From Spizellomyces punctatus DAOM BR117 (Eukaryota), in the NCBI GenBank assembly GCA_000182565.2, contig KQ257454.1: a DNA stretch of 62,903 nt. One strand, 5' to 3'. Shown in pieces: positions 37,866 through 40,554 of this stretch. Both the position numbers and the translations under genes were made by a program. Within the stretch, counting starts at the first letter, position 1; each line of letters opens with the position of its first letter. Below the pieces are notes generated by a model. It saw only the letters and a list, made by a program, of their open reading frames with translations, ran no database searches and had not been told where the DNA came from.

Positions 37866-39156
37866 ATGTCGTTCCCTTTCCAGCCAACGGAACGTTTATA
37901 TGCGAGTGTGACAGGGGGCGGCGAAAGCTTGGGAATATGGGGTCCAGGTAACATAGCCTTCCCGGACTTGGACGATTTCGCATCTCTGCTCTCGGGGGCT
38001 GCACCCTCGACGGAAGCCGGGAGTCTCCCGACACCCCCGCTAGGTGAAAACCTAGAATTAGGTGGAGGACGCCACTCCACTGTTGAAGATTTGGAGGCCT
38101 TCTTGTTGGGGAGCGCTGATATACCTACTGTACCACCGTCCATGGGTATCGCGAATGCTTTCCAGGACACAGATTTTGTTTTTGCCGATGTTATGGCATC
38201 GACAGGCTCGTCGCCACAGACGACCGCAATGAGTGCCACTGTGGAGGGTCAACACTGCCGATCTGCGCTAGATACCCTACCTTCCACTGCGTCAAAGACT
38301 CGGCCGGGGCAACCAATGTCTCCAGTGTCAATAACGTCGAATGATGAAGCACCAATCAGCGAAGTGGAGCCAAAGAGTCTTGGCAAGCGCCGAAAGTTAA
38401 CTGCTGAAGAGAAAGATCAAAGAGCGAAAGAGAGGTAACTAGACAGTAATAAGCAAAGCGTTCTTTGGGATGATTGCACGTTTTGACTTGTGTTGCAAAA
38501 GGGCGATTCGTAATCGACAAGCAGCTCAAGAATCCCGCGACAAGAAGCGCAAGTACATTGATGACCTCGAAGCGACAAACGCGCATCTTTCACAACAGAA
38601 CGTGGAGCTTACCCAACGACTCGAGTCGATCGAGCGCACGAACCAGTCTTTGACCTCCCGCATTGAAGACCTTGTGTCCCAGCTTGCTTCTTTCCGAAAA
38701 CGATTTAAATCTTCCGACGAATCTGAATTCCTCGCGCTTGGCGCTCTTTCATCCGACCCAGCAGCGGTCGCATCCCAGCAGCGGATGTTGTCAAGCAAGA
38801 GGAATTCGAAGAGCCTTGCGACGACTGCGCAAGGCACCTCAGCTTCGAAGAGTTCTTCAACCTCGACCCAGGCTCACCCGCTGGCTGCGATGGTGGTGGT
38901 GACTCTTTTCCAATCGATGGTCTATATGATCACGACATCAAGAGTCTTCTCGCCTTTGACCAGCCTTTTGACCTTGGGTTCCAGGTTGAAGAATTCTGCT
39001 GAGGGTCCGGTCGATCTAAAAATTAATCGTGGAGAATCCTGGCGTCAAATGCGGACAGGGATTGGGCTTTTGCCAGATCTCGATGGGTATTATTCAACAC
39101 AGCCATGCTCCCGGTTAGAGAAATTTCCGGTTTTGCGAAAGATATGGGCGATGTAG
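37866..39156 (+). CDS. HAC1: Hac1/XBP1-like bZIP UPR transcription factor (unspliced form ends 39156; Ire1-spliced form ends 39002)
   Basis: KRRKLTAEEKDQRAKER/AIRNRQAAQESRDKKR basic region plus leucine zipper, followed by twin CAGCAGC hairpins at 38754-38787. Confidence 0.9.
38754..38787 (+). promoter_or_regulatory. Twin Ire1 cleavage hairpins flanking a 17-nt unconventional intron (38762-38778)
   Basis: CGACC-CAGCAGC-GGTCG immediately followed by CATCC-CAGCAGC-GGATG: two perfect 5-bp stems with 7-nt CNG|CNGN loops. Confidence 0.88.
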
Positions 39157-39591
39157 ACCAACGTGAGGCTTAATACTTTTTGATTCACCCGGGCGCCAAC
39201 GAGTCCTTCTTGCTCATTTCTAGGTGTTTGAGGAATAATATTTTTTTTTTTCATGTCTATGTAGTTGGTTTGTTCTTTTAGTTATGGCCCAAAATGGGGC
39301 ATGTAAATAGAGAAATATTCATTATTTTGGTTTATATCATTCCTTGGAAACCTGCTGTGCATCTTTCATTGACAAAGTAATGAATACCAGCATGTTCCAA
39401 TTCTTCATCCCTAGATGCCTCTGTGTTGTGTCATACAGGGGATTCATTGCTCTGGGAATCTGAATTGTACTCCGTCGATCTGAAGCTGGTGACGTGTTCC
39501 TGTAATCGAATGTATCTGTGCAGTGCTATTTGTGCAACTGGGAATAGAGACAGTTCCGTAAGGCTCATCTGATATGCAAATACTCATGTTT

Positions 39592-40554
39592 CTACTCTTG
39601 ACATTGTAGCCATCCTTTCGCAACTAATGCCAGCGTTGCCCCCTCTTTACCTTGCTTCTCATACAACGCCGACAATCTGTCCCCAGAAAGTTTTTGCAAT
39701 GCCACCAACGTGCCCTCCTCAACAGGTTCCACATCTTGGTTCTTATTATCGCTCACCACTGACGATGTCCCTTTTGAACCTTTGCCAGACGGTCTCTGCT
39801 TTGAGCGTTGGTCTAGTAGTGCACTCGATGCCAGACGGAGCCCATATAATGCCCGCAAATTGTCTTTACATAGCTCCAAACCAGAGCAGTAATATTTGAC
39901 GGCAAGATCGAGCTTCCCCAGGGTATACAACAGGTCGGCATAGCGGATGTGATAAAGATGGTTCTGAGGACGTAGCAATAAAAGCTCCTCGAAACAGAAT
40001 GCGGCCTGTTGATACATGCTCTCTCCAATGTAAAGTGATGCAAGTTCGGCCCACGCCTCCACGTCCTGCATAAAAGCGTCCACATACGTCACGAGTCGTT
40101 CGATAGCTTCCGTACGCTTGCCTTGGGAGCTTAACACGGCTACTAGTCGCTTATGGGTCAACACATTTATTTCGTCCTGTTCGAGGGCAGTTTGGTAAAT
40201 TTCGATTGCCTTATCAAAGTCACCTTCGGCTTCCTTCAATAAGCCATACAGCCGTTGTACACGGACGGAGGACTTGAAGGGGAAGCGCTTCTCGATTGTT
40301 GCAAGGTGAGTCTTCGCAATATCAATGTTTCCTGTGTCAAGGGCAGCAACGAACACTTGTTCGAGGACGGCAAACCTCTCGATATCGCCGAAGGAAGCAG
40401 TCTTGAGGAGGTGAGAGCCATGGGAGAGGACCTCGGCAGGATCGTAGTGCGGTGGGAGATCTTCTGCGCCAACCGAGACTGGATCCGCGGTGCCCGTTCG
40501 CAGTGTGGCGAGTTTCTGACGGGCATTCGTAACGTTAAAGTTTGGAGGTGCCAT
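39592..40554 (-). CDS. EMC2: ER membrane protein complex subunit 2 (TPR)
   Basis: VLEQVFVAALDTG, RFPFKSSVRVQRLYG, YVDAFMQDVEAWAELASLY, AAFCFEELLLLRPQN, DNLRALYGL. Confidence 0.9.
   Translation of the reverse strand: MAPPNFNVTNARQKLATLRTGTADPVSVGAEDLPPHYDPAEVLSHGSHLLKTASFGDIERFAVLEQVFVAALDTGNIDIAKTHLATIEKRFPFKSSVRVQRLYGLLKEAEGDFDKAIEIYQTALEQDEINVLTHKRLVAVLSSQGKRTEAIERLVTYVDAFMQDVEAWAELASLYIGESMYQQAAFCFEELLLLRPQNHLYHIRYADLLYTLGKLDLAVKYYCSGLELCKDNLRALYGLRLASSALLDQRSKQRPSGKGSKGTSSVVSDNKNQDVEPVEEGTLVALQKLSGDRLSALYEKQGKEGATLALVAKGWLQCQE

Follow-up and report, generated by a model that had tools for sequence, protein, structure and literature searches.

The stretch of DNA analysed here, hereafter the window, comprises 62,903 nucleotides (nt) of contig KQ257454.1 from the chytrid Spizellomyces punctatus DAOM BR117 (NCBI GenBank assembly GCA_000182565.2). 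Its positions 37866–39156 hold HAC1, the gene for the bZIP transcription factor whose mRNA Ire1 acts on during the unfolded protein response (UPR), of which the Ire1–Hac1/XBP1 switch is the most conserved branch. Without any Ire1-type excision, the translation of the locus is identical at 407 of 407 residues to XP_016609543.1/KND01504.1, labelled "transcription factor HAC1 [S. punctatus DAOM BR117]", a label that reflects the depositor's naming and is not experimental. The public annotation of S. punctatus HAC1 is this unspliced form of 407 amino acids (aa). Pfam searches placed bZIP_1 (6.2e-10) and bZIP_2 (7.3e-9) directly 3' of a conventional intron, and no Pfam family was matched by exon 1 or by the spliced tail described below. 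The mRNA in question encodes a UPR bZIP factor, an orthologue of Hac1/XBP1/bZIP60.

Downstream of the bZIP region, the sequence forms two hairpins that lie side by side. Hairpin 1 consists of the stem CGACC (38754–38758)/GGTCG (38766–38770) and the loop CAGCAGC (38759–38765), and hairpin 2 of the stem CATCC (38771–38775)/GGATG (38783–38787) and an identical loop (38776–38782). All ten pairs of the two arms are Watson–Crick, the stems abut between 38770 and 38771 with zero spacer, and the pair spans 34 nt (38754–38787). We applied the Ire1 rule, by which a 7-nt loop is cut directly behind the G of its CNG triplet (CNG↓CNGN). Loops that obey this rule, each on a short stem, stand at both predicted exon–intron borders, and cuts after G38761 and G38778 excise 17 nt. 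The initial annotation had described two abutting perfect hairpins with CAGCAGC loops, no spacer between their stems, and cuts after both CAG triplets that remove 38762–38778; each of these statements was reproduced on the sequence. Its overall reading, a predicted 17-nt Ire1-type intron in HAC1, is supported by the identity of the gene, an Rfam match, the folding, the reading frames and the protein of a relative. From sequence and folding, we consider it very probable that S. punctatus HAC1 carries a 17-nt unconventional intron processed by Ire1.

The loops form part of an 11-nt perfect direct repeat, CCCAGCAGCGG, whose copies at 38757–38767 and 38774–38784 lie 17 nt apart. Because of this repeat, 12 distinct 17-nt deletions (starting at 38757–38768) yield one and the same product. 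A spliceosomal origin of the 17-nt gap was rejected, as GT..AG ends are missing from all 12 of these deletions.

Removal of the predicted intron changes both the reading frame and the C-terminus. The resulting coding sequence (CDS) is 1053 nt long, encodes 350 aa with zero internal stops and ends in an acidic tail. Translation of 38781–39002 reads ADVVKQEEFEEPCDD...FDLGFQVEEFC, followed by a stop at 39000–39002, and agrees exactly with the acidic tail that the initial annotation had quoted as ending at 39002. This +1 frame is interrupted by six stops over 38511–38724, after which it stays open from 38727 as far as 39000. To describe coding bias we used codon log-odds per codon, trained on eight long open reading frames (ORFs) of the window. 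Upstream of the junction (38503–38760), the unspliced frame scores +0.245, the +1 frame −0.50 and the third frame −0.103. Between 38781 and 38999 the +1 frame scores best (+0.252), with +0.038 for the unspliced and −0.65 for the third frame, and past the +1 stop (39003–39153) the unspliced frame is best (+0.128), followed by the +1 (−0.018) and third (−0.315) frames. The codon bias switches frame at the predicted junction. The two alternative tails also differ in charge, with 19 D+E and 3 K+R in the 73 aa of the spliced tail from 38781, and 6 and 16, respectively, in the 130 aa of the unspliced tail. By composition, the acidic tail of the predicted spliced protein (Hac1s) is of the activation-domain type.

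The sole Rfam match in the stretch searched was RF04247 (bZIP non canonical Hac1/Xbp1 intron), which aligns over its full length (model positions 1–72) with 38736–38796 on the plus strand (E 4.3e-4), including both loops and the outer helix. Folding of a 93-nt segment (38720–38812) gave a minimum free energy (MFE) of −36.1 kcal/mol and a z-score of −3.74, equalled by 0 of 200 shuffles. In the MFE structure as well as in the centroid, the twin hairpins are enclosed by exon–exon helices of 8 and 10 base pairs (bp), 18 bp in all. Within a 251-nt context, pair probabilities are 0.91–0.94 for nine of the ten arm pairs and near 1.0 for the outer helices. The pairs of hairpin 2 all have a probability of 0.91 (5/5), and those of hairpin 1 range from 0.93 to 0.94 for four pairs, with 0.48 for the outermost. 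In the predicted fold, both exons are held by an exon–exon stem (S1), made up of helices A and B (Table 1); helix B is the outer helix of the Rfam alignment.

The fold also contains a candidate for the zipper (ES1-like) helix known from XBP1, between CAUCCG in the 5' exon and CGGAUG at 38782–38787. The probability of this helix before cleavage is 0.05–0.08. A cofold of the cleaved exon ends (−16.6 kcal/mol) contains it, and it recurs in the fold of the spliced product. After joining, the restored CAGCAGC motif lies outside any 7-nt loop in the predicted fold.

We assessed how often such an arrangement arises by chance. Strict hairpins, with a 5-bp Watson–Crick stem and a CNGCNGN loop, occur four times on both strands of the window, against a mean of 0.44 in dinucleotide shuffles. 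The HAC1 pair is the only pair of strict hairpins 15–70 nt apart in the window, and such a pair was present in 0 of 300 dinucleotide shuffles. Under a relaxed definition (4 bp, G–U allowed, CNGNNGN loop, 15–30 nt apart), a pair was found in 42 of the 300 shuffles, and the signal therefore rests on the strict features. Within 37866–39400, these two are the only CNGNNGN hairpins of at least 3 bp, even when G–U pairs are allowed, so the gene offers no alternative partner site. A promoter and terminator scan of 38700–38850 returned nothing; the scan is of the bacterial type and has no bearing here.

For comparison across chytrids we used protein models, and examined 12 proteins for the peptides encoded by the loops. 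The orthologues come from Spizellomyces 'palustris' (94% identical), Powellomyces, two Geranomyces, Thoreauomyces, two Gaertneriomyces, Phlyctochytrium arcticum, Rhizophlyctis rosea, Borealophlyctis nickersoniae and Polychytrium. Four species from three orders share the peptide SDPAAVASQQR, encoded across the two loops, without a single change: S. punctatus, S. 'palustris', P. arcticum (Chytridiales) and R. rosea (Rhizophlyctidales). Their flanks differ in sequence and length. Any choice of codons for PAA gives CNGCNGC, and CAGCAG is one possible coding of QQ. Preservation of SDPAAVASQQR therefore implies the same 17-nt spacing in these species, provided that the loops occupy the same codons.

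A trace of the spliced frame itself is found in the Borealophlyctis model, P0161. Its segment PAADVVKREDTDEPYD agrees at 9 of 14 residues with the junction and tail predicted for the spliced form (E 0.001), a score reached by 2 of 2000 shuffles. Over residues of about 264–320, the model enters the spliced frame at the predicted junction (PAADVVK...) and returns some 55 residues later to the frame of the unspliced protein (Hac1u). This frame chimera is probably a gene-prediction artefact that exposes the +1 peptide. The match implies that the +1 peptide just past the second loop is conserved between orders. The two Spizellomyces species differ at 1 of 74 aa in the dual-coded stretch, compared with 6 of 51 aa where only Hac1u is encoded (Fisher p 0.018).

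Table 1. Features of the HAC1 locus, in coordinates of the window
Feature	Position	Strand	Basis
Exon 1: N-terminal part of the protein, with the beginning of the basic region	37866..38434	+	Exon join reproduces the annotated 407 aa
Conventional GT..AG intron, 67 nt; splits the bZIP basic region	38435..38501	+	Annotated protein recovered exactly on its removal
Exon 2 up to the predicted 5' Ire1 site: bZIP domain and linker	38502..38761	+	Pfam, coding bias
Helix A: outer exon–exon helix, 10 bp (predicted)	38724..38733 with 38799..38808	+	MFE, centroid; probability 0.99–1.00 in 9/10 pairs
Helix B: exon–exon helix, 8 bp (2 G–U) (predicted)	38736..38743 with 38789..38796	+	Folding; probability 1.00 in 7/8 pairs
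Putative zipper (ES1-like) strand CAUCCG in the 5' exon; partner CGGAUG 38782–38787	38750..38755	+	Predicted post-cleavage pairing
Hairpin 1 (stem of 5 bp, CAGCAGC loop) with the predicted 5' cut by Ire1 after G38761	38754..38770	+	Sequence, folding
Predicted unconventional intron, 17 nt	38762..38778	+	CNG↓CNGN rule on both loops; spliced CDS open
Hairpin 2 (stem of 5 bp, CAGCAGC loop) with the predicted 3' cut by Ire1 after G38778	38771..38787	+	Sequence, folding
3' exon, predicted spliced (+1) frame: 74-aa acidic tail and stop	38779..39002	+	Stops, coding bias, Borealophlyctis match
3' exon, unspliced frame: basic Hac1u tail, stop 39154–39156	38779..39156	+	Conservation in chytrid orthologues
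Hac1u hydrophobic segment (LAAMVVVTLFQSMVYMITT), lost on predicted splicing	38881..38937	+	Kyte–Doolittle; aligned and conserved in orthologues
Hac1u C-terminal motif ..FPVLRxxW.., adjoining the stop	39109..39153	+	Alignment, orthologue C-termini

Several observations weigh against a 17-nt Ire1 intron. The RF04247 match scores 30.9 bits, under the gathering score of 41. The shortfall stems from inner-helix and spacer positions of the model that have no counterpart here, and the loops are not its cause: the alignment lacks the inner helix of 5 bp, the 4-nt spacer and one pair of stem 1, and the consensus has about 22 nt between the cuts. A shorter segment of 61 nt (38740–38800) folds unremarkably (z +0.67, with 148 of 200 shuffles folding equally well), and the twin hairpins are not its MFE structure, because the flanking helices are cut off. 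Identity of the loop peptide may also reflect selection on the Hac1u protein. The whole two-loop peptide is present in 4 of the 12 chytrid proteins and the spliced junction in 1 of the 12, and 7 of the 12 do not fit a 17-nt spacing, so that either the 17-nt form is not general in chytrids or the genes differ in ways that are invisible in the proteins. Past the first 14 residues, the tail and P0161 show no significant similarity (1466 of 2000 shuffles reach the same level), and the excess conservation of the dual-coded stretch falls to p 0.06 when it is compared with the rest of the whole protein. A search with the spliced tail against a set of 5.8 billion proteins, looking for longer proteins, gave 18 candidates, none with E <= 10; against 155 collected proteins, P0161 not among them, the best match was P0050, at an unconvincing E of 0.13.

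One alternative is that no splicing occurs, in which case CCCAGCAGCGG would be a small CAG-rich coding duplication kept through the Hac1u peptide, and the 407-aa protein would be the sole product. We regard this as very unlikely, since it leaves unexplained why two perfect 7-nt loops fit the Ire1 consensus within a significantly stable exon–exon stem and in a pairing that none of 300 shuffles reproduced, why the codon bias changes frame at the junction while the +1 frame opens just upstream of it, and why the +1 peptide is conserved in Borealophlyctis. The conservation of the Hac1u tail as a protein and the sub-threshold Rfam score do speak for it, as does an N-terminal region with acidic and hydrophobic motifs (25 D+E in 189 aa) that could itself activate transcription. 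The public chytrid orthologue models, P0161 excepted, are likewise all unspliced; an intron of 17 nt that lacks GT..AG ends, however, is beyond what gene predictors can model, so unspliced annotations are expected either way.

The proteins that depart from the 17-nt spacing fall into different patterns. Those of Powellomyces, the two Geranomyces and Thoreauomyces (P0158, P0159, P0005, P0160) share the first-loop part SSDPA[AV]V only; between it and a conserved IQHG[CS] lies a stretch that differs among them in both sequence and length. The two Gaertneriomyces proteins have SHPEVV, and in the protein comparison the signature is absent from Polychytrium. To judge by the peptides, the second loop may lie elsewhere in the Powellomyces, Geranomyces and Thoreauomyces genes, and their intron may be longer. 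Deriving intron lengths for Geranomyces, Powellomyces, Thoreauomyces and Gaertneriomyces from the peptides was discarded, as several placements of the second loop fit the codons. The Thoreauomyces humboldtii model P0160 (1614 aa) has the HAC1 orthologue fused to a helicase-like 'Tripartite DNA replication factor' and is probably a merged gene model.

This pattern, together with the great differences in intron length among related yeasts (PMC6222058), would fit a case in which the S. punctatus RNA is a real Ire1 substrate whose excised piece is not 17 nt, with a distant partner site or a single cut and a longer intron, as in Basidiomycota and Saccharomycotina. This too we regard as very unlikely: 37866–39400 holds no other CNGNNGN hairpin, even with 3-bp stems or G–U pairs, the two loops are identical and lie inside one exon–exon stem, and only the removal of 17 nt links the upstream frame to the best-biased frame with its open 74-codon tail. 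Least probable of all is cleavage by Ire1 followed by decay of the mRNA without religation (of the RIDD type), by which HAC1 would be down-regulated: single stem-loops of the same consensus do drive Ire1-dependent decay elsewhere (PMC8674358), but two sites on an 18-bp exon–exon stem with a predicted zipper form the layout described for ligation and not for decay (PMC4687415), and an open, codon-biased and conserved +1 frame would be purposeless.

If the 17-nt intron is real, the switch would operate as follows. Under stress of the endoplasmic reticulum (ER), Ire1 would cut after G38761 and G38778, as expected from the family, and free the intron, and the exon ends would remain paired through the outer exon–exon stem. 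The second CAUCCG copy, in the 5' exon, would then act as a zipper that captures the GGAUG strand of hairpin 2, and a tRNA-type ligase would presumably join the ends. The resulting +1 shift would replace the 407-aa Hac1u, with its basic tail and hydrophobic segment, by the 350-aa Hac1s with its acidic tail. An intron of 17 nt cannot form a pairing block with the 5' untranslated region (UTR) of the yeast type, so the unspliced mRNA is most likely translated, as for XBP1 and hacA, and Hac1u is probably made from it.

We compared the predicted intron with those of known systems. The HAC1 intron of C. albicans, of 19 nt, marks the lower limit of the range according to PMC6222058, which cites Hooks and Griffiths-Jones. 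The hacA/hac1 intron has 20 nt in T. reesei and in Aspergillus, but 23 nt in N. crassa (PMC13703316), and the introns of XBP1 and bZIP60 measure 26 and 23 nt, respectively (PMC11077094). The three sources agree with the range of about 19–26 nt given in the initial annotation, and its statement that 17 produces the same frameshift as 20, 23 and 26 is correct, as all four leave a remainder of 2 on division by 3. The predicted 17 nt falls outside the reported short-class range of 19–26 nt. The shortest Ire1 intron that we found in print has 19 nt, the 2011 survey by Hooks and Griffiths-Jones being known to us second-hand only. Among the matches listed in our literature search (the first 10 of 812 for its broadest part) there was no Ire1-related intron of 17 nt and no report of a HAC1 intron from Spizellomyces or another chytrid, with a prior mention in that survey possible; PMC10512342, which concerns chytrids and HAC1, is silent on intron length in the part available.

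Among fungi, the genes of Aspergillus, T. reesei and N. crassa resemble chytrid HAC1 in having a short intron with remainder 2, a conserved long ORF in the second exon and an added conventional intron (PMC13703316). The chytrid intron is 3–6 nt shorter than those of these ascomycetes and lacks an unpaired spacer between the stems, a comparison that does not extend to the geometry of the ascomycete arms. C. albicans HAC1 belongs to the same very short class, with two hairpins at the exon–intron borders (PMC6222058), but its 19 nt produces the other frameshift (remainder 1) and exceeds the chytrid intron by 2 nt. HAC1 of S. cerevisiae is an Ire1 target in an orthologous mRNA that likewise gains a new C-terminal activation segment, yet it differs in its 252-nt intron, its 5' UTR pairing block and its 3' UTR targeting element (PMC11077094). 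As an intron of 17 nt cannot block translation in the manner of S. cerevisiae, we infer that regulation in the chytrid must differ.

The closest structural parallel is with metazoan XBP1, for which Peschek et al. described a bifurcated stem-loop (S1, S2 and S3) with an ES1 zipper (PMC4687415). Both RNAs have a central exon–exon stem, extendable with bulges, and two arms with 7-mer loops; the XBP1 junction consensus C(C/U)G↓CAGC resembles the chytrid CAG↓CAGC, and a new exon–exon helix after cleavage, predicted in our case, takes the motif out of its 7-mer loop (PMC4687415). The unspliced XBP1 protein also has a hydrophobic region that splicing removes (PMC11077094). The two differ in intron length (26 vs 17 nt) and in the source of the zipper strand, which in XBP1 is released from an arm stem, whereas the 5' strand in the chytrid is a single-stranded repeat of the intron's CAUCC. 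Outside the bZIP domain, chytrid HAC1 had no detected similarity to XBP1, although no animal XBP1 sequence was part of the comparison.

The layout of the unspliced protein deserves separate attention. The hydrophobic segment of Hac1u, which lies in the unspliced ORF and would be removed by splicing, reaches a 19-residue Kyte–Doolittle mean of 1.75, compared with a maximum of 0.38 in the spliced tail. This segment and the motif FPVLRxxW recur in nine chytrid proteins from different orders, and in most chytrid orthologues the motif falls within the last 10–11 residues. In S. punctatus, FPVLRxxW lies 72 aa past the hydrophobic segment, and in chytrids the distance is 50–90 residues. A conserved peptide thus stands beside the stop, far enough downstream for the hydrophobic region to clear the ribosome. 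In XBP1u, the hydrophobic region precedes the pause site, at the penultimate codon, by 52 aa (PMC6624018), and plant bZIP60u stalls about 50 aa after its hydrophobic region (PMC11077094). Hac1u resembles both in having a hydrophobic region followed by a C-terminal peptide; the likeness is one of layout.

By this analogy, chytrid HAC1 might join the smallest workable Ire1 splicing cassette (34 nt) to an XBP1u-like unspliced protein, a combination that we put forward as possible rather than probable. Should the C-terminal peptide make the ribosome pause and the hydrophobic segment recruit the mRNA to the ER, translation-coupled delivery to Ire1 of the animal type would already have existed in the ancestor of fungi and animals. 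The budding-yeast mechanism, with its long intron, translational block and 3' UTR targeting, would then be a late invention. Several bZIP relatives (P0032, P0040, P0082, P0134, P0010, P0033 and P0037), which include Calcarisporiella thermophila and 'HacA' of Rhizophagus clarus, have an aromatic residue and two prolines right before the stop. Where measured (P0032, P0040 and P0082), this end lies 51–54 residues past a strongly hydrophobic segment, and it may act to stall the ribosome during termination. As proteins of other early-diverging fungi, these relatives fit an ancestral origin of the delivery mechanism. The XBP1u-like unspliced protein is a more promising lead than the length of the intron.

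With respect to size, the predicted intron is a minimal natural version of a well-known Ire1 RNA switch, extreme in its dimensions, and not a new kind of system. A natural substrate of two abutting 5-bp hairpins would define the minimum that Ire1 and the ligase require, and could provide a compact RNA for structural work on an Ire1 oligomer that engages two sites together. The miss by Rfam at its curated threshold, combined with the limits of gene predictors, would explain why chytrid HAC1 is annotated in its inactive form only. With the conserved hydrophobic segment and C-terminal motif, the long-debated choice between an ancestral origin of translation-coupled ER targeting of the mRNA and one specific to animals and plants becomes testable in a genetically tractable chytrid.

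Two further observations concern the remainder of the locus. The N-terminal region of HAC1 (37866–38434) contains the acidic-hydrophobic motifs WGPGNIAFPDLDDFASLL and DFxFAD, which are kept among chytrids and, by analogy with plant bZIP60, may represent an activation region common to both protein forms. On the minus strand, the convergent neighbour of HAC1 at 39592–40554 encodes an EMC2-like TPR protein (PF22890, 6.6e-25); EMC2 is a subunit of the ER membrane protein complex.

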